Under the pieces are notes generated by a model. That model saw only the letters and a program-made list of their open reading frames with translations. It made no database searches and was not told the DNA's origin. Positions 1,279 to 64,000 of a stretch of 64,000 bases of DNA are shown one piece after another (the stretch's first letter is position 1; each line of letters opens with the position of its first letter). The translations under genes and the position numbers were made by a program. Origin of the DNA: Lentisphaeria bacterium. Lineage in GTDB: Bacteria > Verrucomicrobiota > Lentisphaeria > Victivallales > Victivallaceae. The stretch is from positions 42,740-106,739 of the forward strand of contig JAFTRX010000078.1 in NCBI GenBank assembly GCA_017462015.1, written 5' to 3'.

Positions 1279-1284
1279 GATGCG

Positions 1285-2424: not shown

Positions 2425-2445
2425 AAATTCTGCTCCGCAATGGTG

Positions 2446-3384: not shown

Positions 3385-3429
3385 GATTTTTATAACCTCC
3401 AAAATTATATTGTTTTCTTATTCACTTCA

Positions 3430-13936: not shown

Positions 13937-13948
13937 ATTTTCCTCCAG

Positions 13949-14695: not shown

Positions 14696-14712
14696 AACCG
14701 TATTCTCCTTTT

Positions 14713-16263: not shown

Positions 16264-16281
16264 TTAACACACCTCCTTATA

Positions 16282-17784: not shown

Positions 17785-17798
17785 AGTATGTTTCCTTT

Positions 17799-19793: not shown

Positions 19794-19855
19794 TTTCAAT
19801 AAACTCCATAAATTCAACAATTCCCGCCGTCAAACCAAAAAAGCGGTCACCATTA

Positions 19856-19883
19856 AATATAACGAAAAACAGAAAATAAGCAA
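19856..19883 (-). promoter_or_regulatory. Putative promoter of the hydrolase operon (TTGCTT-16-TATATT)
   Basis: On the minus strand the sequence reads TTGCTT attttctgtttttcgt TATATT. It lies in the 133-nt gap between the araC-type gene and the GH gene. Confidence 0.35.
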
Positions 19884-19926
19884 TAGTTCCGACTTGGATT
19901 ATAGTATCAATAAATGCGAAATCGGC

Positions 19927-20736: not shown

Positions 20737-20778
20737 CTTATATTCTCCCAAAAAGTGAAAACTCTGCTGTACGAACTT

Positions 20779-20807
20779 AATATAACGGCACAAATCTCTT
20801 TTGTCAA
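20779..20807 (-). promoter_or_regulatory. Putative sigma-70 promoter of the araC-type gene (TTGACA-17-TATATT)
   Basis: Consensus -35 TTGACA (minus strand, 20807-20802, overlapping the DUF790 stop), a 17-nt spacer, and TATATT (20784-20779). Confidence 0.55.
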
Positions 20808-34860: not shown

Positions 34861-36057
34861 ATGCACAGAATATTTTGTCAGGAAATTCCCGGAGAAGAGA
34901 CCGTGTTTTCTCCGGAAGCGCGGGAGGCGGAACATCTTTTCAAGGTGTTCCGGGCGCGGCCCGGCGATGCGGTCGAACTGCTTGACGGCAGGGGAAACCG
35001 CGCCCGGGGGGAGGTGCTGCCCCAGCGGCAGATACGGGTTTTGCAGCATGAGCATGTTGCCGAACCTGTTGAGAAACTCCATTTGTGCTGTGCGCTTCCC
35101 CGGCGGCAGAAATTGGATTCTCTGCTGAAACAGGCAACTGAACTCGGGGCATGGACGATACGTCCGGTGCATTGTGAACGTTCCGTGGCAGAAGGCAACC
35201 CCCGGGAACGGTGGGAAATTTTGTTGAAAGAAGCGTGCAAGCAGTCCGGAAATGCCTATCTCCCGGAGATACATTGCGAACAGAAACTCAGTGTTGTATT
35301 GGCAGAATTGAAAGCAGAAGGCGTTGATATTTTTTACGGCAGTGTCAAGCCGCTGCCCGCCGATTACGGCAATCCGGAAAAGGAGCGCGCCAAAGCGGTG
35401 TTTATCGGTCCGGAAGGTGGTTTCACCGATGAAGAGATCGCCGAGATCGAAGCTGCCGGAGGAAAACCGTTGAATCTGGGACCGCATATTTTGCGTTTGG
35501 AAACGGCGGCAGTCGCGGCGCTGGCGGTGCTGCGTTTTTTGAGTGTGCTTTTCTGTTTGGGAGTGATGATGCTGACCGCTGCCGGATGCGAGCAGAAGGA
35601 TATGAAAAAAAATCCGCTGTTTTTAAAAGCGGAGAAACTGCGTAATGATGGAAGTTTTGAAGATGCAAGGCGTTTTTTGCGTCAGGCTGTTGCCCGGTAT
35701 CCGGAATCAGCGGAGGCATATCTGGCGTTGGGAAAACTTTGTGAAGAAGAGCTGAATGACAAGTTGGAGGCGGTCTATTGTTACCGCAACTTTCTGCAGT
35801 TTGCCCCGGCAGATGATTACCGGAGAGCCGGGGTGGAAAAATTTATCGCCAATTTGGAAAATGATCTGGCGAAAGAGTTTGTCGCCAAGTCGCCGGAAGT
35901 GGCACAGTTGAAAAAAGATAATCACAATTTACTGACGGAATTGAATCTCGCCAAGCGCCTGATAATGAGCAATCAGAAAAAAATAAAGGCATTGAACAGC
36001 CAGTTGAAGGCAGCGCAGGCACAGCAGCGGCGGGGCGGCAAAAGGAGAAGTCGATGA
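34861..36057 (+). CDS. rsmE: 16S rRNA m3U1498 methyltransferase RsmE, continuous in frame with a lipobox-bearing TPR/coiled-coil segment
   Basis: The first ~225 aa are RsmE (PUA-like N-terminus, VFIGPEGGFTDEE, PHILRLETAAVAALA). With no intervening stop the ORF continues into (V)LRFLSVLFCLGVMMLTAAGC, then TPR-like and coiled-coil sequence. An in-frame GTG lies at 35527. Confidence 0.75.
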   Translation: MHRIFCQEIPGEETVFSPEAREAEHLFKVFRARPGDAVELLDGRGNRARGEVLPQRQIRVLQHEHVAEPVEKLHLCCALPRRQKLDSLLKQATELGAWTIRPVHCERSVAEGNPRERWEILLKEACKQSGNAYLPEIHCEQKLSVVLAELKAEGVDIFYGSVKPLPADYGNPEKERAKAVFIGPEGGFTDEEIAEIEAAGGKPLNLGPHILRLETAAVAALAVLRFLSVLFCLGVMMLTAAGCEQKDMKKNPLFLKAEKLRNDGSFEDARRFLRQAVARYPESAEAYLALGKLCEEELNDKLEAVYCYRNFLQFAPADDYRRAGVEKFIANLENDLAKEFVAKSPEVAQLKKDNHNLLTELNLAKRLIMSNQKKIKALNSQLKAAQAQQRRGGKRRSR

Positions 36058-36581
36058 TGAAAAGAGTTGTTGAATGTACAGTCATGCTGGCAGTGGCAGT
36101 TGCCGCCGGGGGATGCTTCTTTTCCCGGGCACCGCAGTTGGAGATCAACGAATATGCTCCGGAATTGCGTCCGGCATCCCGGATGTTGACGGCAATGCAG
36201 ATCGGCAGTGTGGTAAATCTTTCCGGTTCCGGCAGAGAGTTCGTCATCCGGAAGAAAAATGGCAAAGTGATTTGCGATGAGAGCCGCAGATGGCTCATCG
36301 CGCCGGAGCAGATGTTGAAAAATGCGATGCTTATTCACAGCAGCAGTACCGGAGCAGACCGGGTAAGCGCAGAGATATTGAAGTTTGAGTTTTCGTCAGA
36401 TATGGGCGAATTGTCCACGCTGGTGCGGTTCCGGTTCCGCTCCGTGAACAGCCGGAATGAAATGTGCTGTGTTGCCGCCGTCGCGGTAAAGGTGAGCGAT
36501 GGCGATTACGGCAGAAGCGCTGCCGCATTGTGGGAAAAGTTGTTAAATGAAACATTCAATAAGGATAAGATGGTAAAATGA
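36054..36581 (+). CDS. Lipoprotein, unknown function
   Basis: The signal peptide has a lipobox (MLAVAVAAGGC). The start overlaps the upstream stop (ATGA). Confidence 0.6.
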   Translation: MMKRVVECTVMLAVAVAAGGCFFSRAPQLEINEYAPELRPASRMLTAMQIGSVVNLSGSGREFVIRKKNGKVICDESRRWLIAPEQMLKNAMLIHSSSTGADRVSAEILKFEFSSDMGELSTLVRFRFRSVNSRNEMCCVAAVAVKVSDGDYGRSAAALWEKLLNETFNKDKMVK

Positions 36582-37000
36582 AAAAAATCTGGTTGTTTGC
36601 AGTTGCGGCGATACTCTCTGGCGGCGGATGTGTCAGAACTTCCACGTTGGAGTGGTCAAAACCGGTTCCGGGAGCGGTCAGCAGTTCCGGTACTCCGGTG
36701 GTGTGGCAGTTGAAAGCGCGTAATTGCGGAGTGTATTTGTTCAACGTCGTTCCCATCTGGTCAGGTAAAGAGAGCCGTCCCAACCGCAAAGATTACCGCA
36801 TCGGACAGGATCGTGTCAATGAATGGGATATGCGGAGACTGCTTGATTCTCAACTGCATAAATTGGGTGCGGATCGGGTCGAAGATATAAAAATGAGCAG
36901 CTATTCCAGCGGCGCATGGGGATTGTGGATTTTTTGGAAAAAGTCCATGGTTGCTACCGGATTGGCGGTCAAAAATGCTTCAAAACAAAAAAAACGGTAA
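36578..37000 (+). CDS. Lipoprotein, unknown function
   Basis: MKKIWLFAVAAILSGGGC lipobox. The start overlaps the upstream stop (ATGA). Confidence 0.6.
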   Translation: MKKIWLFAVAAILSGGGCVRTSTLEWSKPVPGAVSSSGTPVVWQLKARNCGVYLFNVVPIWSGKESRPNRKDYRIGQDRVNEWDMRRLLDSQLHKLGADRVEDIKMSSYSSGAWGLWIFWKKSMVATGLAVKNASKQKKR

Positions 37001-37018
37001 TAGAATTCACAACATTGC

Positions 37019-37047
37019 TTGAAAAAAGTACCCAGTGGTGCTATATT
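37019..37047 (+). promoter_or_regulatory. Putative promoter of tpiA-secG and downstream genes (TTGAAA-17-TGcTATATT)
   Basis: TTGAAA at 37019-37024, a 17-nt spacer ending in an extended-10 TG, and TATATT at 37042-37047. It lies in an AT-rich gap 95 nt upstream of tpiA. Confidence 0.5.
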
Positions 37048-37141: not shown

Positions 37142-37912
37142 ATGAGCCGTAAAGTTATTATCGCCGGAAACTGGAAGATGAACAAGACCGCTGCCGAAGG
37201 TTGCGAATTGGTCAATGCTCTCAAAGAAAAGCTCGGTTGCAGCTGCTATGACAACGTGGATATCGTTGTCTGCCCGCCCTTTACCACTCTGGGTGCGGTG
37301 GTGGAAGCTGCCAAAGGCAGCCGCATCAAAGTCGGTGCGCAGAACGTCCACTGGGCGGAAAGCGGAGCCTTCACCGGTGAAATTTCTGCTGAAATGCTCA
37401 AAACTTCCGGCGTTGAATATGTCATCATCGGTCACAGTGAACGCCGTCAGTATTTCGGCGAAACCGATGCCACCGTCAACAGCCGTCTGAAAGCTGCGTT
37501 GAATGCCGGTCTCAAACCGATCGTCTGCATCGGTGAATTGCTGGAAGAACGCGAAGGCGGATTGACTGAGAAAGTTCTGACCACCCAGATCCGCGGCGGA
37601 TTTGACGGAATCACCGGTGAGCAGATGGCGAACATCGTTGTCGCTTACGAACCGGTTTGGGCTATCGGTACCGGCAAAACTGCCACCCCGGATATCGCTC
37701 AGGAAACCCACGCGCACATCCGCAAAGAACTCGAAGCCATGTTCGGTGCCGAAGTTGCCGGTAAAGTCCGCATCCAGTATGGCGGCAGCATGAAAGCTGA
37801 TAACGCCCGCGAACTGGTTGCGCAGGCTGACATCGACGGCGGGCTGATCGGCGGTGCCGCGTTGAAAGCTGACAGTTTTGCCGCGCTTATCGATGAAGCG
37901 ATGGGAAAATAA
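37142..37912 (+). CDS. tpiA: Triosephosphate isomerase
   Basis: IIAGNWKMNKT, IGHSERR, AYEPVWAIGTG and YGGS motifs. Confidence 0.95.
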   Translation: MSRKVIIAGNWKMNKTAAEGCELVNALKEKLGCSCYDNVDIVVCPPFTTLGAVVEAAKGSRIKVGAQNVHWAESGAFTGEISAEMLKTSGVEYVIIGHSERRQYFGETDATVNSRLKAALNAGLKPIVCIGELLEEREGGLTEKVLTTQIRGGFDGITGEQMANIVVAYEPVWAIGTGKTATPDIAQETHAHIRKELEAMFGAEVAGKVRIQYGGSMKADNARELVAQADIDGGLIGGAALKADSFAALIDEAMGK

Positions 37913-37930: not shown

Positions 37931-37962
37931 TCCTTGTGCCGATTTGCATTTTGGCACAAGGA
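37931..37962 (+). other. 10-bp stem-loop between tpiA and secG (possible attenuator or weak terminator)
   Basis: TCCTTGTGCC - 12-nt loop - GGCACAAGGA. It is followed by only a weak T tract (gtattatctttt). Confidence 0.3.
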
Positions 37963-38031: not shown

Positions 38032-38373
38032 ATGAGTATTTTGACCATTTTATGCTACGCGTTGATCGTGGTGATCGCGCTTTTGCTGATCGGGTTGATC
38101 ATGATTCAACCGTCAAAATCCGGCGGAATGGGTGCTGCATTCGGCGGTATCGGTGAGACATTCGGCGGCAAGGCCGGAAGTCATTTGACCAAAACGACCG
38201 TCATCCTGACTGCGCTATTTTTTGCCGTGGCGCTGGCGTTGGCAGCATTCATCGGACATGGCGGCGGAAGCGCGAAGGTGTCGGATGAGTTTGCCGCTGA
38301 GTTGAACCGGAGTGAGGAAGCCAAGCCGGAAGTTAAATCCGAAGCGAAGCCGGAAGCCAAGCCGGCGAAGTAA
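38032..38373 (+). CDS. secG: Preprotein translocase subunit SecG
   Basis: The first TM, then IMIQPSKSGGMGAAFGG, then a second TM. It sits in the classic position after tpiA. Confidence 0.85.
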   Translation: MSILTILCYALIVVIALLLIGLIMIQPSKSGGMGAAFGGIGETFGGKAGSHLTKTTVILTALFFAVALALAAFIGHGGGSAKVSDEFAAELNRSEEAKPEVKSEAKPEAKPAK

Positions 38374-38388
38374 GAAAGAGGCATTATA

Positions 38389-39168
38389 ATGTTCAGTGCA
38401 GCCAAAAGAATTGCAGTTTCAACCGTGTTGTTCACCCTTTTTGCTCTCGAAGCAGCAGGGGTCGGCAATGTTGTTTTTGAGCGCGTTCACATCAAGGTTT
38501 CACTGATCGAAGCGGCAGAGGTGCGTTACAATGCATCTTTGCCGTTGAATATGGGACGGCGGCAGCCGGAAAACCGTTGGGTGATGATTGCCGTCGAGTA
38601 TACTCCCAAAACGAAAAATGTAACTTACGGCAAACGACGTGATAAGTCTGATGCCTACCTGCGGCATCAGCAATCCTGGCTGGATAATGTGGATCTCCGT
38701 TTGCGTGTGATTTTTGACAGTATCGGTTCAGACGGCAAACAGGAGAAGGTCATGCTGGATGGCATCACCAGTTTCTGGACAGTGAAGCTGGATGATACCA
38801 AACATGTTGCCGTCATGTTTATTCCGGCGTATCTGATCGATCGCCACTATGTGCAAATTCCGCGCAGCAGCAAAGCCCAGCGTAATCGCAAAGTCAATGT
38901 TTCGGGTATTGTCGCACGGAAGATCAAAGAGAGTGATTTGGTTGTGGAAGCTGTATTCACTGCGGACGGTGAGGAACTTGCCAGTGCATACTGTAATGTT
39001 GGCGTGAGCAATCTTGTCAGAGCGAAGAATAAATTTGAACGGATGGTCGGGCAGGTTCCCGGACATCTGTATTTCAAGGGGGCGGTGCTTTCCAAAGGTA
39101 AATCACCGTGGGCGTTCTATAATATCAATCATTTTGACCCGGAAAAACCCGCAGTGCAGAACAGGTGA
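38389..39168 (+). CDS. Exported protein of unknown family, first gene of the pilus-like cluster
   Basis: 259 aa with an N-terminal hydrophobic signal/anchor (RIAVSTVLFTLFALEAAG). AAGAAAGAGG lies upstream. The start is 15 nt after secG. Confidence 0.6.
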   Translation: MFSAAKRIAVSTVLFTLFALEAAGVGNVVFERVHIKVSLIEAAEVRYNASLPLNMGRRQPENRWVMIAVEYTPKTKNVTYGKRRDKSDAYLRHQQSWLDNVDLRLRVIFDSIGSDGKQEKVMLDGITSFWTVKLDDTKHVAVMFIPAYLIDRHYVQIPRSSKAQRNRKVNVSGIVARKIKESDLVVEAVFTADGEELASAYCNVGVSNLVRAKNKFERMVGQVPGHLYFKGAVLSKGKSPWAFYNINHFDPEKPAVQNR

Positions 39169-39204
39169 CCGCGGCAGGGCAGCAGAAAAGTGTGGTATTG
39201 AAAT

Positions 39205-41031
39205 ATGACAAAAGAAAATAAAGTTCTGACGATAGACATCGGCGGAGAAAATCTCAAGATGGCGGAATTTCATTTCCCGGAAAACGGTGGTATGGTTATG
39301 CATGCCTTCGCTTTCCGGAAAATGGTTCGTGAAGAGGGGGAGAGCAGCCGCGATATGTTCAGCCGTTATTACAACGAGCTGATTGCAGAAGGCGGTTTTA
39401 CCGCGACCAATGTGCGTCTTTCGCTTTCTGCACAAAACTCTTTTCAGCGGTTGAGCAAACTGCCGCCGGTTCTCGGCAGCCGTGATGCTATCGACCGGTT
39501 GATCGAATTTGAAGCCTCGCAGACCATGCCCTACGCTATTGAAGATATCGAATGGGGATATCAGCTGCTCTATCATGAATGGGATGAAATGGTTCCTGAA
39601 GAGCAGGAAGATGGTTCCATCGCTGAAATCAGCGTTCACCGCAGTGAAAATGAAGCGCTTTTTATCGCGATGAAGAGTGATGATGTTGTTCCCTTTACCG
39701 AGGTCATTGAAGATTCCGGTAAAGTTGTTCTTTCTGTTGATGCAGCTCCCGTTGCGCTCTTCAACGCGGCGATGGCGGCGCAGATCAAAGATGATGAGTG
39801 CGCACTGCTGGTCAACATCGGTGGCGGTGCCACCAGTTTGATGATTGCGGACAAGCACCGGGTGTTCTTGCGTAATATTCCTACTGCCGGTGAATCAGTC
39901 ACTGCGCAGATCGCCCGTGAGTTTTCCATTGATAACAATCAGGCGGAAGACTTCAAGCGCCGTTACGGATTTGTTGCCCTCGGCGGTGCGTATGAAGAAC
40001 CTGAATCAGAGCTGGCATCCAAGATATCCAAAATCACCCGTAACGTTATGACCCGTCTGCATGGTGAAATCAGCCGTTCCGTCAGTTTGTGGCGGGCGCA
40101 GCACGGCGGATCTGCGCCGACGCGGATCCTGCTCGCCGGTGGCGGTTCCACGATGCAGTATACGACTGAGTTTTTCAATGAAAAGCTCCGTATTCCGGCT
40201 GAATATCTCAACACCTTCCCGCTGATCGGTATCGGCAGTGGTGTGGACAAGAACCTTCTTCAGTCGGTTGCGCCGATGTCACAGGCGTTGATCGGTCTGG
40301 GATTGCGGGAACTCGGACACGCGCCGCTGGACATCTCTTTGCTGCCGAAGGTCATCAAAAAGCAGTTTGACTTGAACAGCCGCAAGCCGTTTTTGTATGC
40401 CGCCGTCGGTACGCTTATCAGCAGTTTGCTTATCTTCGTTTTTGGATTGATGCTGCTGCGTACCCACGAGCAGAACCGGGTTGCCGCGATCCAGCAGGAC
40501 GTGGTCAAAGCTGAGAATGAAACCCGGAAGATCCAGCAGCTCAACAACGAATTGCTCAATTTGCAGGGGCAATTTGATGAGTCCATGAATTTCCTGCGCG
40601 ACCGCAACACCTGGGCGCGCATGATTTCCGAAATCCAGCGCAAGATGCCGGCAAATGTGTGGCTGGTTGCATTGGAGTATGACGGTGACCGCAAACTCAA
40701 CACCGTCGACACCGGCGAAAGTTTGGGCGGAGAAGAGGGCGAAATGAATTTGAACAAGGCAGACAATCCCAACAAGCGTATGTCGTTGAAAAATATTTCC
40801 AATCTTCAGAATATTACCAAAGTGCGTCTGGTCGGTTATGCCCGGGACAGTCACGATGATGGCGGTGCATCTATCAACGCATTTATTGAAGCGCTCCGCA
40901 AAGAGAGTCCGGAAGCACCGAGTTTCTTTGATGTCAACAACGTCAACCTCAACCGCAACCGGGTGGACGGAGTTTACAATTTGTCCTATTTTGAAATAAT
41001 ATTGACGCTCAAAGAGCAGCTCAGAAAGTAA
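39205..41031 (+). CDS. PilM-like actin-fold ATPase fused to a PilN-like bitopic segment
   Basis: PilM blocks are VLTIDIGGENLKMAEF, SVDAAPVALFNA, LVNIGGGATSLMIA, IPTAGESVTAQIAREFSIDNNQAEDFKR and ILLAGGGS. Then come ISLLPKV, a TM helix (FLYAAVGTLISSLLIFVFGLMLL) and a coiled coil, as in PilN. Confidence 0.75.
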   Translation: MTKENKVLTIDIGGENLKMAEFHFPENGGMVMHAFAFRKMVREEGESSRDMFSRYYNELIAEGGFTATNVRLSLSAQNSFQRLSKLPPVLGSRDAIDRLIEFEASQTMPYAIEDIEWGYQLLYHEWDEMVPEEQEDGSIAEISVHRSENEALFIAMKSDDVVPFTEVIEDSGKVVLSVDAAPVALFNAAMAAQIKDDECALLVNIGGGATSLMIADKHRVFLRNIPTAGESVTAQIAREFSIDNNQAEDFKRRYGFVALGGAYEEPESELASKISKITRNVMTRLHGEISRSVSLWRAQHGGSAPTRILLAGGGSTMQYTTEFFNEKLRIPAEYLNTFPLIGIGSGVDKNLLQSVAPMSQALIGLGLRELGHAPLDISLLPKVIKKQFDLNSRKPFLYAAVGTLISSLLIFVFGLMLLRTHEQNRVAAIQQDVVKAENETRKIQQLNNELLNLQGQFDESMNFLRDRNTWARMISEIQRKMPANVWLVALEYDGDRKLNTVDTGESLGGEEGEMNLNKADNPNKRMSLKNISNLQNITKVRLVGYARDSHDDGGASINAFIEALRKESPEAPSFFDVNNVNLNRNRVDGVYNLSYFEIILTLKEQLRK

Positions 41032-41046
41032 GCGGGGGGTGACACT

Positions 41047-42474
41047 GTGAACAGATTTACCAAAAAGAATATGGTGTTTATTTCGGTACTCTCCGCGTCC
41101 GGAGCTGTTGCCGCGATTTTGTTGATTTTCGCCGCGATCGTGTTGTTCGGTCTTCTGGACAGCATGGGAGAGACCAAGAATGCCCGCGCCCGCGTGGAGA
41201 AACTTACCCGCGCAAAACCGGCTCCGGGTGTGGAAAATGAAGAGCGTATCAAGAAAGACATCGAAGTCTATAAAGATGCCGCCAAGGGTATCCGTAAAGG
41301 ATTCAGCACTCCGTTGCAGCCGGCGGTGGATGCGTTCATCAAGGAGCTTGCCGCACCGGGAACACAGCAGATGAGCGAAGATCAGCAGGAGCGTTACCGG
41401 GTCAGAGACCCCAAAATCGATGAGATGGATGACGCGCAGAAGAAAAAACTGCCGATGCGCAAGTTGACGCTGGATGAGTTTAAAGAGTTCTACCGGGAAC
41501 GTTTTGAAGTTGAATGCGGCAATTACAGCGACCAGCGCAAAGATGCGTTGTCAACGCAGTCATTCTTCATCAACAACTTCCGTAAAAACTTCAGCAACTG
41601 GCAGAGTGCGGTCAGCAAATTTGTCGCAACTGCGCGCACAATTACTGCTGAACCTATCGGTACTACCAACGCCGTGGCGTTGTTGCTCAACGCGATGGGT
41701 TTTGTCCGTGCCGTGCCGGAAGAAGCAGAATTCAGCCGCCTGATGGAAGATTACCGCAGTGTGATAGAGAAAAAAGCGGAAAAAGGAAAACTCGGCATGC
41801 AGGCTGAAGCTGCCAACTTTATGTTGGGCAACAGCGGCAGTCAGAATGACAATGCGGTGAACCGCGGTTATGCTGCGGCTGATATCCGGGATGTCTTTTT
41901 CCACTGGGATGTTTTCGGCAACATCGTCGATCATCTTTGCAATGGAAAGATAAAGATTCTTCACAACATCCGTGTCCGTGATTTTGCAGAAAATCCGGAA
42001 GAAGGACGCAAGCTCGGTAACTTTCGGGAGACTGTCGGCAGTTATCAGGTGTATCACTACACGGTCGAAGTTTCCGGTTCCATGGAGAGTATTCGTGCGT
42101 TTTGCCAGAGCTTGGATCAGTCCTGGAAGCAGCGGAGATTTTATGTGGTTCGCGCGGTTACGCTTTACGCAGAAGAAAATGGTGCTGCTATTCTGATGAA
42201 GCAGGAAGCAATTGCCAAGAGCGAGAATAATTCCGGCAGCGGCGAGGAAGAAGTTTCCCGCGGCCGGCGCCTCCGCCGCCGTACCACGCAGAACAACAGT
42301 GATGATGCCAATAATCAGCAGAACGAAGAGGATTTGCGCCGTCAGGAAGCTGAACGTATCAAACGGATGAAAGTTCATGAACGTCCGGGATACGGTGCAG
42401 TGCTGATCGGTATCGGTGATATGTATCGTGCATTTGTTGACTTTGACTATGTCGTTCTCGACAAAAATCAGTAA
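41047..42474 (+). CDS. N-terminally anchored protein of unknown family (possible PilO/Amuc_1100-like role)
   Basis: 475 aa with a GTG start behind a G-rich SD. One TM (MVFISVLSASGAVAAILLIFAAIVLFGLL) is followed by charged helical regions. The C-terminal portion is alpha/beta-like (YHYTVEVSGSMESIRAFCQSL...FYVVRAVTLYAE). Confidence 0.6.
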   Translation: MNRFTKKNMVFISVLSASGAVAAILLIFAAIVLFGLLDSMGETKNARARVEKLTRAKPAPGVENEERIKKDIEVYKDAAKGIRKGFSTPLQPAVDAFIKELAAPGTQQMSEDQQERYRVRDPKIDEMDDAQKKKLPMRKLTLDEFKEFYRERFEVECGNYSDQRKDALSTQSFFINNFRKNFSNWQSAVSKFVATARTITAEPIGTTNAVALLLNAMGFVRAVPEEAEFSRLMEDYRSVIEKKAEKGKLGMQAEAANFMLGNSGSQNDNAVNRGYAAADIRDVFFHWDVFGNIVDHLCNGKIKILHNIRVRDFAENPEEGRKLGNFRETVGSYQVYHYTVEVSGSMESIRAFCQSLDQSWKQRRFYVVRAVTLYAEENGAAILMKQEAIAKSENNSGSGEEEVSRGRRLRRRTTQNNSDDANNQQNEEDLRRQEAERIKRMKVHERPGYGAVLIGIGDMYRAFVDFDYVVLDKNQ

Positions 42475-42486
42475 GGGGAGGCGGTT

Positions 42487-43806
42487 GTGAATTTCTTTAA
42501 GCGTTATTATGACAAAGTTATTCTTTTGTCGTTGTTTGTGCTTTTTGTGGCACTGATGATCACGGTGTTGTCTGTTCATCAGCAGACCCGTGAAATCACC
42601 CCGGAGCAGTTGCGGCTGCCCCGGCGCCGTCCGGACCACGTTTGCGTGACCCCGGAACACGATGTATACAAATATAACAGCAGATGGAACGAGCTGCAGA
42701 TGAAATGGCAGCCCGCCGGTAATAATTCCGACTTGGTCAGCCCGCAGAAGTTGGCGGTGTGTCCGTATTGCGCGGAAAAGGTGAACAGTGCACGTTTGAC
42801 GTTGATCCCGTTTTCTGCATTCGATGGAAAAAAATCCTGCCCCGTTTGTGCGACAAAGTTGGAAAAGCCCACTGAAACCCAGATGTCCGGTCGTGTTATC
42901 ACCGCCAACGACAGTGATGGTGACGGTATTTCCAATGAAGATGAACGCAAATATGGTTTGAATCCGGAAGATGAACGTGATGCCGCGTATGATATGGACG
43001 GCGATGGTTTCAGCAACCGGTACGAAATCGCGCAGAAAAAGCGTCCCAACGATGCGACCGACCATCCGCCGCTCTGGTATCGTCTCCGTGTCGTTGACGT
43101 GCGTACGGTTGAATTGCCCATCCGCTTCATGGGTGTAAACACCAACAACAAGAGCGATAAAAAGAGCTGGGAGATCCAGTACAATTTGCCGCGTACATCA
43201 CGCCGCGGCAAGGTGCGTATCGAAAGTAACTTCGTCTATATCGGTGATGAAATTTCCGTTGACGAAAATGATAACCGCCGTTATGTGATCGTCGATGTTC
43301 AGCGTCTGCCTGATAGTGCCGATAAGGGTGATGAACAGGATAAGAAGGATAAAGCCGCCGCCAAGAGTGACGGCGCTGAAAATGAATCTTCCAACACCGG
43401 TAAGTTTAAGATCAAACTCCGTGAAGTTTTGGAGCCCGGCAGCAAAGCGCGTCCGGAGGAGTTGGAACCGATCACCCGCGAACCGACATATTCTAACGAC
43501 TTGCGTCCGGTGCTGCAGGATACCGGTCGTCCCGGTTCGCAGCCGATCGTCAGACGTATCAACGCCGAGGTCGTGATCGAGCGTACGGTTCAGGTCGCCC
43601 GCGGTCGTCGTCCTTACCGGGAAAGATACCGTATCGTCAAGGTTGATCACAAGACCAAGCATGTGACCATTGTCAAAGGCGGCAGTATGGATGACGAAGA
43701 TGATAAAAATGTTGAAAAGTTCGTCATCACGCCGGAAGGCAAAGTCCCGCGTGAAGACTGGGTCGTTGAAGGTAAGACGCAGGAAAATGCTTCTGCTGAA
43801 CAATAA
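42487..43806 (+). CDS. N-terminally anchored protein with a CxxC-X26-CxxC zinc ribbon and two DxDGDG calcium-loop motifs
   Basis: 439 aa with a GTG start behind AGGGGAGG. The TM is VILLSLFVLFVALMITVLSV. It carries CPYCAEK...CPVCATK, plus NDSDGDGISNEDE and DMDGDGFSNRYE. Confidence 0.6.
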   Translation: MNFFKRYYDKVILLSLFVLFVALMITVLSVHQQTREITPEQLRLPRRRPDHVCVTPEHDVYKYNSRWNELQMKWQPAGNNSDLVSPQKLAVCPYCAEKVNSARLTLIPFSAFDGKKSCPVCATKLEKPTETQMSGRVITANDSDGDGISNEDERKYGLNPEDERDAAYDMDGDGFSNRYEIAQKKRPNDATDHPPLWYRLRVVDVRTVELPIRFMGVNTNNKSDKKSWEIQYNLPRTSRRGKVRIESNFVYIGDEISVDENDNRRYVIVDVQRLPDSADKGDEQDKKDKAAAKSDGAENESSNTGKFKIKLREVLEPGSKARPEELEPITREPTYSNDLRPVLQDTGRPGSQPIVRRINAEVVIERTVQVARGRRPYRERYRIVKVDHKTKHVTIVKGGSMDDEDDKNVEKFVITPEGKVPREDWVVEGKTQENASAEQ

Positions 43807-43853
43807 TTTCTGAAATGAATTAAAAATATAATATATCGGAAGGGATTGTGGAA

Positions 43854-46457
43854 ATGATGAAACCATCCATCGTAGTTGCGGGAATGTGTTCGCTTTTGTT
43901 CTGCTTCCAGGCCGGAGCTGCTGAAGCAGCCGGTGCCGGAGCGGGAACAGCAGCTCCCGTCAGCAAAGCAGAAGCAGATCACCGCAGTGATCTGGTCGCA
44001 ATGTACGAAGGTCAGGAAGACCGGATAAAGCAAGCCAGAGAGTTGGTCAAAAAAGGTAAATATCCGGAAGCGATCGACCTCTATCTTGATGTCCAGGGTG
44101 AACTTGATCTGCTGTGCAACGGTTCGGGAGCTGTCGAAAGCTGGAAAGCGCGCAAACGCTATGCCGAAGTTGGTGCTGAGCTGAATAAAGTCAGACGCCA
44201 GTTCGGAGAGATTTTGTTGCGTAAATCCAAAAATGCTTTCAACGACGCCAAGTACAATGATGCGATTTCGTTCGCAACAGAGCTCGCCAAGTTCTGTCCG
44301 GCGATGCTGGAAGATGCTGAAGAGATGAAGGTTCTCTCCCAGAGCAGACAGCGCGGTGAAGAACGGCTCAATGATGCCTCTCCGGATCGGCTTTATCCTG
44401 ATCTGAAAGGTAATGAACAGAAGATTGCCGCCGCGCTTGCTGAAGCCAAAGTATTTATGCGTAATCGTAAATTTGAAGAGGCGCGCCGCCGGATCGAAGC
44501 GGTCTACAAGCTCAATCCGTTCAACGCGGAAGCGGCATATCTTGCCAATCAGATTTACTCAGAATACTACACCGCCGGTTATCATCGCGCGCAGGCTGAT
44601 GTGCGCAGTCTGATGGCGTTTGAAGCGTGGCAGTGGGTGGAACCTGTCTTTTACCGTAATGTCAGCAAGGTCGATGTTGATGATGGACAAATCAAGGGTG
44701 TCAGCGATGAGCGCATCCAGAGTCTTTTGGATACTATCGTTTTCCCGACGGTCAAATACACTGAAACCAACATCCGCGACGTGGTCAAGCATTTGATGCG
44801 TCTCAGCGCGAATCTGGACAACAGCACCGAACAGAAAGACAAAAAAGGTGTTATTATCGACTATATCGCCATGAGCGCCGCTGCCGAAAAGGCCGCAGAA
44901 GAGGCGAAGAAGGCGGCCGCGGCTGCCGATGCTGCCAGAGATAGTGATGCGGCGGAGAATCTTGATGCTCCCCCCGCTCCGACTCCTGCCAAAGGTGAAA
45001 ATGCCGATGCCGCAGCTCTGGAGGAACCGCAGGAAAAATTGGTTACGCTCAACGTCAGCAACGCAACGTTGCGTGAAGTGCTGGATTACATCTCATTCTT
45101 GACCGATCTTCCTTACCGTGTATTGCCTGACCGCATCGTTATCGGTGCCGTCGGTGACAACGTGACGGAAGAAGTTTTTGTGGTCGCACCGGAAGCGGTC
45201 GCGATGATTACCGGTGACACCAACAACCAGCCTGATGATGCCGGTGAGGCAGAAGGTGAAAAAGATGGTGGCAAAGGCGGTGACAGTGAAGGTGAATTGA
45301 CTACCGGAAAAGTGCTGGATGTCGATATCAACCCGGATTTGCTCAAAAAGTTTTTTGAAGGCTTCGGAGTCAGTTTCCCCGAAGGCAGCAGCGTGGTTTA
45401 TGAAAACGGTAAGATCCGCATGGTGAACTCGCAGGAGAATCTTAATAAGGTCAGTGAACTGCTCCGCCAGCTCAATGCGCCGCAGCCGATGGTGCAGATC
45501 GAACTCAAGAGTATTGAAATTTCTGAAAATGATATGGAAGAACTCGGTTTCAACTGGTCACTGGGAACTATCGGACGCAGCAATGGTCACGAGAGCTCCT
45601 GGAGTTCCGGTCAGGGAATCAATGCTCAGATGGGCAGGGCGTTGAATGCGCTTAGCAGTTCCATTACCGGTGCCGGTGCGACACTGGTCGATAACTTGAG
45701 CATCTTCCCGGATCTGTTCGGTTCCATCAAGCCGTTCGATTCCGATACCGCGCTCAACCTTTCTCTGACGATCAACGCACTTGACCGCAGTGACCGTACT
45801 GAAATGATCTCTGCTCCCAGTGTTATCGTTGCCGATCAGAAGACGGCAGACGTCAACTTGAGTACTGTTTACTACTTCCCGGAAAGCTGGGAAGAACTGG
45901 AAGTTGAATTGGATGGCGGTGACGGCGACAGTGGTTACCGGGTCACCATTACGGCTCCGATGCCGGAATTTGACGAACAGACTGACGTCGGTACGGTGTT
46001 CAAGGTTACTCCGCATATCAAAAAGAACCGTATCATCGGTCTCCATCTGATTCCTAAGGTTTCGAGTTATGTCGGCAAGGACAGCTTTGCAGTTCCGGTT
46101 GTGATTGAACGTTACAATACGCAGAATAGGCGTTTTGAAGTGGATAATGCGCTTTCCAAGAGCTTTGAGGTCTGGAAGCCGGTTATTGCCAACCGGGCGC
46201 TGGATGTCCAAGTCAACGTGTTTGACGGAGAAACGCTGGTGTTGGGAGGATTGTCCGACAGTATTGTTTCAACGCGTCTGGATAAGATTCCGATTCTTGG
46301 AGACATTCCTTTCATCGGACGGTTGTTCCAGTCTCAGTCTGAAATGTCCACCCGCAAGAACATGTTGATTTTTGTTACGGCGCGTCTGGTCGATAATGCC
46401 GGCTTGCCGATCAATGCATTGGAAAAACATGGCGGCATTCCGGATGTTAACCGTTAA
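43854..46457 (+). CDS. Secretin (GspD/PilQ superfamily) with a TPR-like N-terminal module, copy 1
   Basis: The C-terminal secretin signature reads LVLGGLSDS...KIPILGDIPFIGRLFQSQSEMSTRKNMLIFVTARLV. It has a signal peptide (MMKPSIVVAGMCSLLFCFQAGAAEA). The track GTG at 43848 is an alternative start. Confidence 0.85.
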   Translation: MMKPSIVVAGMCSLLFCFQAGAAEAAGAGAGTAAPVSKAEADHRSDLVAMYEGQEDRIKQARELVKKGKYPEAIDLYLDVQGELDLLCNGSGAVESWKARKRYAEVGAELNKVRRQFGEILLRKSKNAFNDAKYNDAISFATELAKFCPAMLEDAEEMKVLSQSRQRGEERLNDASPDRLYPDLKGNEQKIAAALAEAKVFMRNRKFEEARRRIEAVYKLNPFNAEAAYLANQIYSEYYTAGYHRAQADVRSLMAFEAWQWVEPVFYRNVSKVDVDDGQIKGVSDERIQSLLDTIVFPTVKYTETNIRDVVKHLMRLSANLDNSTEQKDKKGVIIDYIAMSAAAEKAAEEAKKAAAAADAARDSDAAENLDAPPAPTPAKGENADAAALEEPQEKLVTLNVSNATLREVLDYISFLTDLPYRVLPDRIVIGAVGDNVTEEVFVVAPEAVAMITGDTNNQPDDAGEAEGEKDGGKGGDSEGELTTGKVLDVDINPDLLKKFFEGFGVSFPEGSSVVYENGKIRMVNSQENLNKVSELLRQLNAPQPMVQIELKSIEISENDMEELGFNWSLGTIGRSNGHESSWSSGQGINAQMGRALNALSSSITGAGATLVDNLSIFPDLFGSIKPFDSDTALNLSLTINALDRSDRTEMISAPSVIVADQKTADVNLSTVYYFPESWEELEVELDGGDGDSGYRVTITAPMPEFDEQTDVGTVFKVTPHIKKNRIIGLHLIPKVSSYVGKDSFAVPVVIERYNTQNRRFEVDNALSKSFEVWKPVIANRALDVQVNVFDGETLVLGGLSDSIVSTRLDKIPILGDIPFIGRLFQSQSEMSTRKNMLIFVTARLVDNAGLPINALEKHGGIPDVNR

Positions 46458-46478
46458 TTCTGCCGAAGGAGTGATAAC

Positions 46479-48713
46479 ATGTTGAAAAATAAAGTTATGT
46501 TTCTGGTGCCCGGGCTTTTGCTGGGCGTGTCCACTTTCGCAGCCCCCAAGACCCCGGCTCCGAAGGTTCCTGCCGGCAGTCCGGATTTCACTGTCCGCCG
46601 GGATCATGTCGGCCGTCAGGAAGTGTTGCGTAATACCGATGCCGAAGTTGCGCGAGCCAACCGTCTGGTCGTTGAAGGCAAATTCGATGAGGCGATCGAG
46701 CTTTACCGCGCGGTTGCCAAGAGCTTGGAAAATTTTGCCGGACAGCGTTTCGTTGAACGGCGTAAAATTTGCGAAAAGCGTATCCGCATGAGCTACTTCA
46801 AGAAAGCTGAAGCTGCCATGCGTAAAGCCGATGATACTGTTACTATCGGTGACTTTGAAGCGGCGATCCGTCTGTGCAAAGAAGCGTTGATGTACTGCCC
46901 GGAAAAGAAAGAAGAGCTGGAAAAGAAAATTGCGATGTACGAGATCCGCAGCAAAGCCGCGCGTACTCGCGAAGGTCGTGATATCGCCAACCTCGCTCCC
47001 GGTCTGGAAGCGCAGAATTATCAGATCCAGGTTCTGATCGAACAGGGTCGTGCGCTGGTGCGCCGTCAGGAATATATGAAGGCAAAACGCAAATTTGAAG
47101 AAGTTTTGCTGATCGATCCGTACAATGATGTCGCTATGCAGGATCTGCTCGGTGTCAATACCATGATCCGCAATGCCGCCCGTTTGCGTGCCAACGCGAC
47201 TGCCCGCCGTTTTGTCGGTGGAACCGTCTGGGGCAAAGCGATTCCCGTGGTCACGGACAAGATGTCCATGGATTCCGACAATCAGTTGGACAGTCCGGCA
47301 GTGAAAACAGTTGAATCTGAGTTGGAGAAAAAACTCCGCTCCATCCGCACTACGGTTTCATTTGAAGGTAAGAATATTTACCAGATCATGGAAATTTTGT
47401 CCAAAGAGTGTCTGCGTCATGACCCGGCACGTCTGGGCGTGAACTTTGTTATCAAAAGCAAACCCGGTATTACTGCCGATACTGAAGAACAGCCTATGGT
47501 GGATCAGTTCTTCAAGCGCAATGCCTCGATCTATGACATTTTGTTCGACCTTCAGCACTCGAAAAAGTTCCTGACGTTCCGTGTCGACCGCAATGCGGTG
47601 TATGTTGCTGCTGCCGGTGTTCCGCTGGAAAAGATGGAGGTCAAGATTTTCAACATCTCACTTCCTGCCAAGATTTCCCGCAACCTCAAGACCAGTCTTG
47701 AAACCCGTAATATCAAGTTTGATAAAGAAGCGTATGTCAAAGTCAATGGCAACTACGTCATTGCTTACAACACTCCGGACAACTTGAAGAAGATCGAAAA
47801 TGCGTTGCTCAACATCAGTACGCAGGAACCGGATATGGTTCAGCTGATGTTCAAGTTCCTCGAAGTCAAGCAGGACGACCTGGATGAGCTGGCATTCAAC
47901 TGGCAGTACAGCCGTTCCGGCAACAAAGTGCATTTCGGTACCAACGCCGGAAACGCGCTGCTCCGCCATTACAGCTATGATGCCTCCGGCGGCGGTAAGC
48001 GTTCCGACGGTATGCCGGTCGGTGGTAATCAGGATGATGCCAACTATTATTTCAACTGGAGTGACCGCAAGAACAACTTATCTTTCCAGCTCTATGCGCT
48101 GGATTGGGCTGACAACGCCAACGTTCTGTACGCGCCGCGTATCACCACGCTTTCCGATCAGTTGGCTAAAATCGACATGTCCGAACAGCATTACTATCCG
48201 GAAGACTGGGAATCGGTCGATGCTGAAAGTTCTGACAACCTCCGTTTCAGCGGCGCTGTGCAGCCGGACTTGGAAGATGAGCAGAAGCTTGGTATCAACT
48301 TTGAAGTTCAGCCCCGGGTCGTCGGACAGCGCATCACCGTTCCGATCAACATCCCCATTATGCAGTTCAGTGAATGGTTGACCTTCGATAACGGTGATGA
48401 AGAAGACCGCGAATATGTGAAGAAACCGATCTTCACCAAACGTCAGATCAAGACGGATGTCACGGTCAAAGATGGTGAAACGATTTTCGTTGGCGGTGTG
48501 GTTTCCGACCTCTCAACGACCGTCCATGACAAGATTCCTATTCTGGGCGACATTCCCTTTATCGGACGTCTCTTCCAGTCCAAATACACCAAGTCGCAGA
48601 AGATCAATCTGATGGTTTTCCTCACTTGCCGCATTGTCAAACCGGACGGCTCCGTGCGTTATCCGGAAAACACGTTGGATGACGGTATCCCCGACTTCCC
48701 GCGCAACCAGTAA
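46479..48713 (+). CDS. Secretin (GspD/PilQ superfamily) with a TPR-like N-terminal module, copy 2
   Basis: The signature reads IFVGGVVSD...KIPILGDIPFIGRLFQSKYTKSQKINLMVFLTCRIV. It has a signal peptide and a GAAGGAG SD. It is colinear with copy 1. Confidence 0.85.
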   Translation: MLKNKVMFLVPGLLLGVSTFAAPKTPAPKVPAGSPDFTVRRDHVGRQEVLRNTDAEVARANRLVVEGKFDEAIELYRAVAKSLENFAGQRFVERRKICEKRIRMSYFKKAEAAMRKADDTVTIGDFEAAIRLCKEALMYCPEKKEELEKKIAMYEIRSKAARTREGRDIANLAPGLEAQNYQIQVLIEQGRALVRRQEYMKAKRKFEEVLLIDPYNDVAMQDLLGVNTMIRNAARLRANATARRFVGGTVWGKAIPVVTDKMSMDSDNQLDSPAVKTVESELEKKLRSIRTTVSFEGKNIYQIMEILSKECLRHDPARLGVNFVIKSKPGITADTEEQPMVDQFFKRNASIYDILFDLQHSKKFLTFRVDRNAVYVAAAGVPLEKMEVKIFNISLPAKISRNLKTSLETRNIKFDKEAYVKVNGNYVIAYNTPDNLKKIENALLNISTQEPDMVQLMFKFLEVKQDDLDELAFNWQYSRSGNKVHFGTNAGNALLRHYSYDASGGGKRSDGMPVGGNQDDANYYFNWSDRKNNLSFQLYALDWADNANVLYAPRITTLSDQLAKIDMSEQHYYPEDWESVDAESSDNLRFSGAVQPDLEDEQKLGINFEVQPRVVGQRITVPINIPIMQFSEWLTFDNGDEEDREYVKKPIFTKRQIKTDVTVKDGETIFVGGVVSDLSTTVHDKIPILGDIPFIGRLFQSKYTKSQKINLMVFLTCRIVKPDGSVRYPENTLDDGIPDFPRNQ

Positions 48714-48723
48714 CGATGCTCTT

Positions 48724-48752
48724 CACCCCGGAATTTCCGGGGTGATTTTTTT
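48724..48752 (+). terminator. Rho-independent terminator after the second secretin
   Basis: CACCCCGGA-att-TCCGGGGTG is a 9-bp stem, followed by A and T7. Confidence 0.7.
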
Positions 48753-61983: not shown

Positions 61984-62619
61984 ATGTATATCGGAAGAAT
62001 CGTTGCTTTCGGAATGACTAAAGACGGCCGTCCCTGCGCCATGTACCGGGTCTCATCCCGTTCTTTCCCCAACCGCCGCGCGGTTGAAAACAACGGCAAT
62101 ATCGCCATCATTCCCCGTGAAGGTGCCGAAGGCGACCTTGCCAAGAATCCGTATATCAGCTACAACTGTCTGCGCATAGCCGGTGAATGGGCCATTGCCA
62201 CCAACGGTTCCCAGACTGACCCCATCACGGAAAAGATCGCCGCCGGAATGCCGGTGCGTGATGCCATCACCATGTGTCTGCTGGCGATGGATTATGAGAA
62301 AGACTCCCTTGACACTCCGCGTGTGGTTGCCGTTGCCGGCAGAGAATCCAAACTCGGTTATCTCGGCATCGTCCGCAAGGATGCGGTGATGGTGCGGGAA
62401 TTCAAGATGGAACCGGGCGTGGCGCGTTATATCTCCACCTACGAGTGCAATGCTCCCTGCGATACCAATGTCGATACCAACTTCGATGCAGCGTGCGAAA
62501 ACTGCGCGGTCAAGTACGTTGTTGACGGCGGTGTTTTTGCCGGTTTTGAAAACCCGGTCACCAGTGCCGCGGCGATCGCCACGGAAGATGGCTTCGCTCT
62601 GGCGACGCTTGTTTGCTGA
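61984..62619 (+). CDS. purO: Archaeal-type IMP cyclohydrolase PurO
   Basis: MYIGRIVAFG...YRVSSRSFPNR...NPYISYNCLRI...TNGSQTDPI...LLAMDYEKDSLDTPRV closely matches the PurO family as I remember it. A GGAGGA SD lies 7 nt upstream. Confidence 0.8.
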   Translation: MYIGRIVAFGMTKDGRPCAMYRVSSRSFPNRRAVENNGNIAIIPREGAEGDLAKNPYISYNCLRIAGEWAIATNGSQTDPITEKIAAGMPVRDAITMCLLAMDYEKDSLDTPRVVAVAGRESKLGYLGIVRKDAVMVREFKMEPGVARYISTYECNAPCDTNVDTNFDAACENCAVKYVVDGGVFAGFENPVTSAAAIATEDGFALATLVC

Positions 62620-62648: not shown

Positions 62649-64000
62649 ATGATTGACCGTATTACTGCGGTTGAGATCACGGGAGAGAATGCAGAGATTT
62701 TCTGCCGTGATGAGGTCGGGGAATGTGTGAAAAAAACAGTGCCCTTTTCTCCGTGGCTGCTCGCGGAGAAAGGGGGTGTTGTCCCCCCGAATGCGCATGC
62801 AGTGGAACTTGCCGGAAAGGCGCCGCTGAATCTCCGTTGGGAGTTTGACAACGTAGCAGATTACGATGCCGCGTGTGAAGCGGTGAAGAAAAGTCCCGGT
62901 GTGCTGACGGTAAGGGAGTTGAGTACCCAATTCCTCAGCATCAGCGGGAACCGTTTTTTTAGCGGCATGGATTTTTATGAGCTGCACCGGATGCAGTTTG
63001 CCGTGACTTCTGACGGTGATGCTGCTGAAATCATGTCGATCGAAGTTGCTGACAACCGTGGATACTTTGCCCGCTTTGATGCACTTGAGTGCGGTGGTGA
63101 AGCGGCGGTGTTGGCAAAATTCAACGCTGCGGTCAAAGAATGTGACCCCGATCTGCTTGAGGGTTACAATATTTTTAAAGAAGCCCTGCCGCTGATTGAA
63201 AAGCGGGCGAAAAAGTTGAAATTCAGTTTCGACTGCGGACGGGACGGCGGGGGATTTTCCTCCCGGAAAAGCCGTTTTTCAGTAGCGGAAAAACAGATTT
63301 CCTGTACCCGATATTTTCTTTACGGCAGACAGCTTGCCGATGTGGCGCATCTGGTGTTGTTTTACGATGCCGCGCACCGGGATATGGAAAATTTTGAACT
63401 GGATTATTTGCGGGAATATTTTTCCATCGGATGCAGTGAAGAAACGCAAGTGGTGCAGGAGCTGTCCAATTTACTTTCTCCGGCAAGTTTTTACAAATGC
63501 TGTACTTTGCCGCTGACGTTCCAGGATTGTGTACTGCGCGGCAGCGGTGCGGCGCTGGATGCATTTTTCATTGCCGAATATCAGCGCGCCGGGTATGCAG
63601 TTCCGTATCCGGAGGAGGCGCGGCGTTTTGCCGGAGCGCTGACCGGGGCCGGAGAAGCCGGCGTGTATCATAATGTCCGGCACTGTGACGTGCGGTCACT
63701 GTATCCATCGGTGCTGTTGTATTTGAACCGCTCTCCGGAACGGGATGAGCTTGGAGTTTTTCTGACTGCGCTCTCCCGGTTGCGGCAATTCCGGCTTGAT
63801 GCCAAAGATCAGGCAAAGGCGCTGCCGGAGGGGCGGGAAAAACAGCGGTTGAACGCGTTGCAGTCCACGTTTAAGATATTGATAAACTCTTTTTACGGAT
63901 ACCTCGGTTTTGCGCAGGGCAGTTTCAATGATTACTCTCTTGCGGAAAGTGTCACTGCTTACGGACGGGAGTTGCTGGGGAAACTTGCGGAAAAACTTTC
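62649..64000 (+). CDS. Family B DNA polymerase, N-terminal ~450 aa (continues beyond the window end)
   Basis: Own translation from ATG 62649, open to the window end and absent from the ORF track. Pol motif A reads HCDVRSLYPSVLL and motif B reads KILINSFYGYLG. The exonuclease-domain region aligns by eye with E. coli Pol II (PDLLEGYNIF versus PDVIIGWNVV). Confidence 0.85.
   Translation, partial: MIDRITAVEITGENAEIFCRDEVGECVKKTVPFSPWLLAEKGGVVPPNAHAVELAGKAPLNLRWEFDNVADYDAACEAVKKSPGVLTVRELSTQFLSISGNRFFSGMDFYELHRMQFAVTSDGDAAEIMSIEVADNRGYFARFDALECGGEAAVLAKFNAAVKECDPDLLEGYNIFKEALPLIEKRAKKLKFSFDCGRDGGGFSSRKSRFSVAEKQISCTRYFLYGRQLADVAHLVLFYDAAHRDMENFELDYLREYFSIGCSEETQVVQELSNLLSPASFYKCCTLPLTFQDCVLRGSGAALDAFFIAEYQRAGYAVPYPEEARRFAGALTGAGEAGVYHNVRHCDVRSLYPSVLLYLNRSPERDELGVFLTALSRLRQFRLDAKDQAKALPEGREKQRLNALQSTFKILINSFYGYLGFAQGSFNDYSLAESVTAYGRELLGKLAEKL

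Follow-up and report, generated by a model that had tools for sequence, protein, structure and literature searches.

Gene content and organisation of the locus

The stretch analysed (the window) comprises 64,000 nucleotides from a Lentisphaeria bacterium (assembly GCA_017462015.1, contig JAFTRX010000078.1, positions 42,740 to 106,739 of the forward strand), and its element of interest is a cluster of six genes, g1 to g6, that encodes a candidate counterpart of the pilus-like Amuc_1102-Amuc_1098 system of Akkermansia muciniphila. The six open reading frames (ORFs) lie in 38389-48713, are co-directional and follow directly downstream of the tpiA-secG pair:

g1: 38389-39168, plus strand, 259 aa, predicted exported protein of the Amuc_1102 type
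g2: 39205-41031, plus strand, 608 aa, predicted PilM-PilN fusion
g3: 41047-42474, plus strand, 475 aa, GTG start, predicted Amuc_1100-type protein
g4: 42487-43806, plus strand, 439 aa, GTG start, predicted Amuc_1099-type protein
g5: 43848/43854-46457, plus strand, 869/867 aa depending on the start (ATG 43854 in the Logan gene call), first secretin
g6: 46479-48713, plus strand, 744 aa, second secretin

From secG to g6, the gaps between consecutive genes were 15, 36, 15, 12, 41 or 47, and 21 nt, with 47 nt holding for the g5 start at ATG 43854, and the ORF coordinates thus reproduced the six genes and the spacing of 15/36/15/12/47/21 nt given in the initial annotation. For g3 and g4, the GTG starts find support in the residues that they add, which are invariant in orthologs. 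The six ORFs are real genes, since about 90 independent loci contain the same array, at amino-acid identities of 21-93%. Judging from its protein sequences, the host is a ruminant-gut Victivallales bacterium and not Akkermansia; the g2 protein was found to be 93% identical to its counterpart in the sheep-colon Lentisphaeria metagenome-assembled genome (MAG) RGIG5537 and 47-51% identical to proteins of further Lentisphaeria and Victivallaceae MAGs, and the exact g2 protein is also present on a Logan contig from run SRR12529369. N-terminal transmembrane (TM) anchors were predicted in g3 and g4, and Sec-type signal peptides in g1, g5 and g6.

Inner-membrane and exported components

The product of g2 was matched by the Pfam PilM_2 (PF11104, E 1e-19) and FtsA domains and by the NCBIfam model NF045709 (Amuc_1101_fam), with a score of 396 bits (E 3e-118; cut-off 650) and residues 145-580 aligned to positions 125-567 of 608; the pilus model TIGR01175 gave 90 bits (cut-off 133). 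The PilM actin-like ATPase part covers about residues 1-370 and is followed by a predicted TM segment (residues 395-420), a coiled coil and an alpha/beta periplasmic tail. Nucleotide-binding positions (D11/G13, G206 and G312/G313) are invariant in orthologs, and so is the I377-x-L379-x-P381 signature of the PilN-type I-S-L-L-P segment (residues 377-381), which is presumably the counterpart of the N-terminal 'INLLP' peptide of PilN that binds PilM. The PilN domain (PF05137) was detected in 16 of 41 orthologs. On these sequence features, g2 is assigned to the Amuc_1101 family as a PilM ATP-binding domain fused to PilN. The initial annotation had taken the fusion for a departure from Akkermansia, which proved incorrect: the Amuc_1101_fam model itself spans 608 positions, including the TM and periplasmic part, and g2 could be aligned through position 567, so the fusion is common to Akkermansia.

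The three products g1, g3 and g4 had been regarded as orphans, but were found by NCBIfam and Foldseek comparisons to belong to the Amuc_1102, Amuc_1100 and Amuc_1099 families, respectively, although direct searches of PDB sequences with the three proteins and with small lineage profiles gave no match. The g3 protein matched NF038287 (Amuc_1100_fam) with an E-value of 2e-8 and a score below the equivalog cut-off of 180, and the PF28028 'Amuc_1100' domain was precomputed on 21 of 29 homologs. Its AlphaFold model (pLDDT 77.6) presents long helices and an alpha/beta core after the TM anchor, and the top ten Foldseek matches of this model were all Amuc_1100 crystal structures (6LAD, 6LAF and 6KNY; E 1.5e-5 to 1e-4, TM-score 0.55-0.68). 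PilO was matched only weakly (2RJZ, E 0.78, probability 0.6; 3JC8 chain Oa also weak). According to the model, g3 is a PilO-like bitopic protein of the inner membrane and of the Amuc_1100 family. All g3 orthologs also carry a poly-arginine run, RRxRRR, within a long region rich in charged residues (window positions 42238-42340, g3 residues about 398-431), which varies in length by more than 80 residues between lineages and has low confidence in the AlphaFold model.

The g4 protein scored 60.3 bits against NF042425 (Amuc_1099_fam), above the cut-off of 50, and is assigned to the Amuc_1099 family on this sequence match. A zinc-ribbon-like C-P-x-C...C-P-x-C motif (C92/C95/C118/C121), predicted to be periplasmic, is conserved in orthologs; TSP3-type calcium-binding repeats (TSP3_bac, found in 21 of 38 orthologs) are followed by a C-terminal domain, and a conserved HPPLW segment is also present. 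No lipobox was found in g4. Its identification by sequence as PilP or GspC was tried and rejected, as the searches returned the zinc-ribbon, TSP3 and one repeat-like match (6XI1) that was deemed uninformative.

The smallest product, g1, had no match in Pfam, NCBIfam or PDB sequences when searched directly. Word-indexed homolog searches yielded just 5-12 close relatives, and an exhaustive profile search was needed to recover 175 representatives. When its AlphaFold model, for which 11 sequences were used (pLDDT 69), was compared with the PDB by Foldseek, three chains of 7DSZ (Amuc_1102) were the top three matches (best E 2.5e-6, probability 1.0) and the sole ones below E 0.001. Additionally, a 75-sequence alignment of the g1 family reached 7DSZ by sequence (E 0.0026, PDB sequences), and 23 of its 75 members matched NF042424 (Amuc_1102_rel, 'Amuc_1102 family pilus-like protein'). 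The aligned N-termini show an n-region with K/R, an h-region of 12-15 residues and an A-x-A-like c-region, as in a Sec/SPI-type signal peptide, and in this alignment neither a class III prepilin signal nor a pilin-type N-terminal helix was found. The model thus presents g1 as a remote homolog of Amuc_1102 (MUL2A), with the predicted form of an exported immunoglobulin (Ig)-like beta-sandwich protein.

The paired secretins

Both g5 and g6 contain an intact secretin domain (PF00263, E 2e-29 and 2e-33, respectively, with additional TPR matches in g6). In the g5 protein, a signal peptide and a TPR-like N-terminal region precede a low-complexity linker, N-domain(s) and the secretin domain, and g6 presents the same layout in a shorter form. 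The two are collinear, identical at 30% of positions across the 376 C-terminal residues and at 22% across the TPR-like N-terminal region, and share an identical DKIPILGDIPFIGRLFQS motif. Against the Amuc_1098_fam model, g5 scored 244 bits and g6 200 bits (cut-off 750); the GspD and PilQ models also matched both proteins and the MshL model matched g5, all below their cut-offs.

Homologs of g5 and g6 were adjacent and both present in 36 loci, and in a neighbour-joining tree of the resulting 72 secretins the proteins at 'position 1' (g5) and 'position 2' (g6) formed reciprocally monophyletic clades with mirrored internal topology. The reciprocal monophyly of the two position clades places the duplication before all sampled Lentisphaerota lineages, and the retention of both copies side by side ever since argues that they are not redundant. 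The duplicated secretin noted in the initial annotation is therefore real, as two Amuc_1098-type proteins, ancient, and conserved across the lineage. Such a conserved pair is out of the ordinary for a type IV filament system or for type II secretion (T2SS), and it poses a concrete structural question; a phrase search of the searchable literature returned no relevant description of tandem or heteromeric conserved secretins.

Two small lipoprotein genes (36054-36581 and 36578-37000, plus strand; 175 and 140 aa, with lipoboxes ...AAGGC and ...SGGGC) lie directly upstream of tpiA, in frames that overlap each other and the preceding rsmE, and belong to no Pfam family. The second (36578-37000) is kept there in most of the nearer Victivallales loci and is absent from the most distant of the cluster-bearing ones. 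A possible role of these lipoproteins as secretin pilotins was set aside, because more distant loci retain the cluster without this linkage.

Conservation across Lentisphaerota

The comparison of neighbourhoods proposed in the initial annotation was made with about 90 related loci from genomes and metagenomes (93 in the motif scan), among which the array recurs and the named carriers are Lentisphaerota. The patterns used for the genome and metagenome scans were taken from Lentisphaeria-conserved peptides, which is why Lentisphaerota relatives alone were returned. The same layout (g1-like, PilM-PilN, g3-like, g4-like, then secretins to the contig end) was observed in 8 of 8 genome loci and in about 45 metagenome loci that were long enough. 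The whole order with both secretins was kept in the 36 loci mentioned above, wherever the contig was long enough, with PilM-PilN identities down to 33%; all the named loci among them are Lentisphaerota, including the cultured Victivallis lenta. Similarly, exact-sequence look-ups of the PilM-PilN proteins from ten more distant loci placed 7 of the 10 in named protein clusters, all Lentisphaerota or Victivallales. The full Amuc module is thus present across a lineage deeply diverged from Akkermansia, and for most of the proteins the likeness between the two shows only in fold or sequence profile. The comparison shows what is truly conserved, namely the fused PilM-PilN with the I-x-L-L-P junction, the core of Amuc_1100, the TSP3/HPPLW region of Amuc_1099, the TPR-secretin architecture and the Amuc_1102 beta-sandwich, and Victivallis lenta, whose complete genome encodes the PilM protein AVM45452.1, offers a second culturable host for tests of mechanism.

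Relationship to the Akkermansia MUL2 locus

Amuc_1100 is the PAS protein, and the 'pili-like' label of its cluster reportedly goes back to Ottman in 2017. Few loci of a next-generation probiotic have received as much study as this cluster. The products of the 'pili-like' genes Amuc_1098-1102 are plentiful in the envelope fraction (PMC5332112), and the gene order from Amuc_1102 to Amuc_1098 is documented (PMC5332112, PMC6828834) and conserved in the genus Akkermansia, where drawings of the cluster show one secretin (PMC6828834, PMC10688800). According to the papers that cite it, Davey 2023 named Amuc_1099-1102 MUL2 and found these genes to be required for mucin use and periplasmic uptake in transposon mutants of A. 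muciniphila (cited in PMC13174399, PMC12418764, PMC13524802). MUL2 is conserved together with glycan uptake in Akkermansiaceae (PMC13174399, PMC12418764, PMC13524802), and its synteny across Akkermansiaceae and Verrucomicrobiales was described by Wilkie 2026, a study that covers the class Verrucomicrobiia only and leaves Lentisphaerota unmentioned (PMC13174399). Additionally, the repertoires of enzymes for mucin-glycan degradation in Victivallales are reported to rank with the largest of gut bacteria (PMC12418764). The Akkermansia locus is less obscure than the initial annotation assumed, since a name and a mucin phenotype have existed since 2023.

The parallel with Amuc_1102..Amuc_1098, which the initial annotation had drawn, was found to hold for every gene. 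That annotation had proposed profile and Foldseek searches, in which the Amuc-family models and structures were indeed the best matches (NCBIfam for the Amuc_1098-1101 families; Foldseek, run for g1 and g3, giving 7DSZ for g1 and 6LAD/6LAF/6KNY for g3). Five gene families, arranged alike in order and orientation, are common to both clusters (Ig-like exported protein, PilM-PilN fusion, Amuc_1100-like, Amuc_1099-like and TPR-secretin), and the closest structures to g1 and g3 are 7DSZ and 6LAD/6KNY, respectively; in neither cluster are ATPase, platform or pilin genes linked. Nevertheless, the two differ in several respects. The present cluster belongs to Lentisphaeria/Victivallales and that of Akkermansia to Verrucomicrobiia; the sequence similarity is remote, with three of the four NCBIfam models below their cut-offs; two ancient paralogous secretins stand here against the single Amuc_1098 of the literature (PMC5332112, PMC6828834, PMC10688800); g3 has 475 aa compared with 326 positions in the NCBIfam Amuc_1100 model; and the four-Cys zinc-ribbon-like motif of g4 lies N-terminal to the part aligned to the Amuc_1099 model. 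The flanks also differ, being tpiA-secG and trmO here and rho and dephospho-CoA kinase in Akkermansiaceae (PMC13174399 supplement). The locus is therefore a member of a known but poorly understood family, not previously described from this lineage.

The best explanation, to which a probability of roughly 60% is assigned, is that the cluster is the Lentisphaeria (Victivallales) version of the Amuc_1102-Amuc_1098/MUL2 pilus-like system, that is, the scaffold of a type-IV-filament-like machine that by homology would serve in glycan capture and uptake. The predicted topologies of g1-g6 fit a scaffold that runs from the inner membrane via the periplasm to the outer membrane. In such an assembly, g2 would contribute a cytoplasmic PilM ATP-binding domain covalently joined to the PilN transmembrane and periplasmic segment, with the Amuc_1100-family protein g3 as its PilO-like partner. 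The bitopic g4, with its zinc ribbon and calcium-binding repeats, would stand in the PilP/GspC position as a periplasmic connector, a role suggested by gene position and topology only. The two non-redundant secretins with TPR-like N-terminal regions would form the outer-membrane gate, and g1 would accompany the scaffold as an exported Ig-like protein. Complex glycans from the host or the diet would be captured by the machine and carried over the outer membrane into the periplasm, and any ATPase, platform or (pseudo)pilins needed would be encoded elsewhere in the genome. Among the possible roles, glycan capture and uptake is considered the most likely.

Several points weigh against this explanation. 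The function of the Lentisphaeria loci would follow from homology only, and to assume a common function is to extrapolate from one class to another, because the Amuc_1101, Amuc_1100 and Amuc_1098 scores lie far below the equivalog cut-offs. A true pilus is doubtful, since the Sec signal peptide of g1 is an ordinary one and a pilin-type N-terminal helix is lacking, and the g1 model is only moderately confident (pLDDT 69, TM-score about 0.5 to 7DSZ). No similarity of g4 to PilP or GspC was found with a 38-sequence profile against PDB sequences or in Pfam scans of all its members. In addition, neither the window nor the surrounding 10 kb in the about 90 loci yielded an ATPase, platform or pilin gene.

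A bolder form of the glycan-import reading holds that g5 and g6 make up an obligate two-component outer-membrane gate, either a hetero-oligomer or two coupled rings, of a machine that imports glycan polymers and does not extrude pili, with a PilM-PilN-PilO-like scaffold and the Amuc_1102-type Ig-like protein replacing classical pilins. This proposal is speculative and decidedly unlikely, but if true it would represent a class-wide, inward-directed use of a type-IV-filament scaffold.

Relationship to type IVa pili and type II secretion

Pfam scans detected no T2SSE, T2SSF or Peptidase_A24 domain in any substantial ORF of the 64-kb window, which bears out the earlier statement that the cluster contains no pilin, ATPase, platform or prepilin peptidase, and no GspE/PilB Walker-A motif was found in any reading frame of the window and the 93 loci (1.14 Mb altogether). 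In the related flanks, prepilin N-termini of the DUF1559 type were sporadic and non-syntenic.

These results bear on the possibility that the cluster is the PilMNOPQ half of an otherwise standard type IVa pilus (T4aP), with pilB, pilT, pilC, pilD and the pilins elsewhere, serving adhesion, twitching or DNA uptake and not glycan import. The resemblance to the PilM-PilN-PilO-PilP-PilQ system of Pseudomonas and Myxococcus includes the PilM actin-like fold with ATP-binding motifs (PilM_2 and TIGR01175 matches), the I-x-L-L-P motif of the PilN N-terminus with its TM segment and periplasmic domain (and the PilN domain in orthologs), a bitopic partner that may be PilO-like, with weak fold matches of g3 to 2RJZ and 3JC8_Oa, a secretin gate whose two members both match the PilQ model, and the gene order from inner to outer membrane. 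Moreover, prepilin-type proteins are encoded both in the window (13949-14695) and, judging by similar N-termini, in related flanks, which implies that a prepilin peptidase exists. On the other hand, every T4aP and T2SS equivalog model scored below its cut-off, and g3 fits Amuc_1100 about 10^4-fold better than PilO. A PilP-like lipoprotein was not found in the cluster, where g4 is instead a zinc-ribbon/TSP3 bitopic protein without a PilP match in Pfam or among PDB sequences; PilM and PilN are fused, and the two secretins and the extra Amuc_1102-like gene are foreign to T4aP. The secretins carry TPR-like N-terminal regions in which AMIN domains were not detected, pilT, pilD and pilin genes are not linked to the cluster, and pilB and pilC are absent within 10 kb in all of the about 90 loci. 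A split T4aP is accordingly considered unlikely.

The window's only prepilin-type protein (N_methyl and DUF1559; 13949-14695, minus strand) is encoded 24 kb from the cluster, and N-termini near-identical to its own are scattered in the flanks of related loci. Its gene sits in a minus-strand block (11804-20793) of large exported proteins without Pfam family, comprising 11804-13936, two paralogs of about 500 aa (14713-16263 and 16282-17784) and 17799-19820, followed by an AraC/cupin regulator (19927-20793). The block may be a glycan-utilisation locus.

A second alternative takes the cluster for a T2SS-like gate, with g2 as a GspL-like, g3 as a GspM-like, g4 as a GspC-like and g5/g6 as GspD-like components, that exports glycoside hydrolases and other exoproteins, in keeping with the linkage to secG. 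The cytoplasmic actin-like domain, TM segment and periplasmic domain of g2 correspond to the architecture of GspL, g4 shares the bitopic form of GspC, the secretin C-domain and the preceding N-domain align to the GspD model, and TIGR02517 (GspD) was the best non-Amuc secretin model, with 115 and 127 bits for the two proteins; the cluster also adjoins secG. These GspD scores are nevertheless far under the cut-off of 351, all Gsp models remained below their cut-offs, no Gsp family match was obtained for g2-g4, and g2 belongs to the PilM sequence family and not to GspL. The operon of GspE, GspF and pseudopilin genes is absent from the linked region, tpiA-secG is a common housekeeping pair whose linkage is lost in the most distant loci, and the Akkermansia homologs are tied to uptake and not to secretion (PMC13174399, PMC13524802). 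Exoprotein export of this kind is thus judged very unlikely.

Finally, the housekeeping context and the absence of motor genes nearby would suit secretins that are mainly abundant structural or porin-like components of the outer membrane, independent of a filament motor and with the inner-membrane proteins as mere anchors. The conserved PilM ATP-binding fold fused to PilN argues instead for a regulated, motor-coupled machine, and a purely structural role appears most improbable. The MUL2-type glycan-uptake machine accordingly remains the preferred reading.

Transcriptional organisation and flanking genes

The features that flank the cluster are the following:

37019-37047, plus strand: sigma-70-like promoter match upstream of tpiA (TTGAAA-17-TATATT, 10/12 matches, plus TG; consensus match only)
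37142-37912, plus strand: tpiA, housekeeping gene upstream of secG (TIM, E 2e-99)
38032-38373, plus strand: secG, housekeeping gene directly upstream of g1 (SecG, E 5e-16)
48723-48745, plus strand (with the T-run, to 48755): intrinsic-terminator-like hairpin, 10-bp GC-rich TCACCCCGGAATTTCCGGGGTGA followed by TTTTTTT (consensus match only)

The hairpin lies 3' of the g6 stop codon and before trmO at 48755, and together with the promoter-like site it brackets tpiA to g6. The short gaps, the one promoter-like site and the one strong terminator-like site make a single tpiA-to-g6 transcript plausible, and tpiA and secG are probably co-transcribed with g1-g6. Of the transcript from a promoter near 37019 suggested in the initial annotation, the sigma-70-like match, the gaps and the hairpin all fit, and the transcript itself is a plausible reading of these signals. 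The operon is probably expressed constitutively alongside tpiA-secG. Linkage of tpiA-secG to the cluster holds in most related loci; this upstream pair and, on the downstream side, trmO persist in the nearer lineages, and the most distant loci have lost them. Horizontal transfer of the cluster is not indicated, its GC content (0.50-0.52) being like that of the rest of the window. A 12-bp hairpin with a weak T tail (37931-37962, plus strand) lies between tpiA and secG and may represent an attenuator or RNA-processing site inside the putative long transcript.

Other genes in the window

At its start, the window carries a gene for a His-rich P-type (E1-E2) ATPase (1-1284, minus strand), which runs past the window start, and three consecutive SPFH/Band-7 genes upstream of it (1288-2445, 2449-3417 and 3430-5385, minus strand); the long plus-strand ORFs at 28-3300 are antisense shadows of these ATPase and SPFH/Band-7 genes. 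A DUF790 protein (E 1e-53) is encoded beside an XPB/ERCC3-type helicase with an XPB damage-recognition domain (20804-23379, minus strand), and the two look like a Bax1-XPB-type nuclease-helicase pair. At the opposite end, a family-B DNA polymerase gene (PF00136, with a DxxSLYPS motif; 62649-63998, plus strand) is cut by the window end and is adjoined by an archaeal-type IMP cyclohydrolase-like gene (61984-62619).

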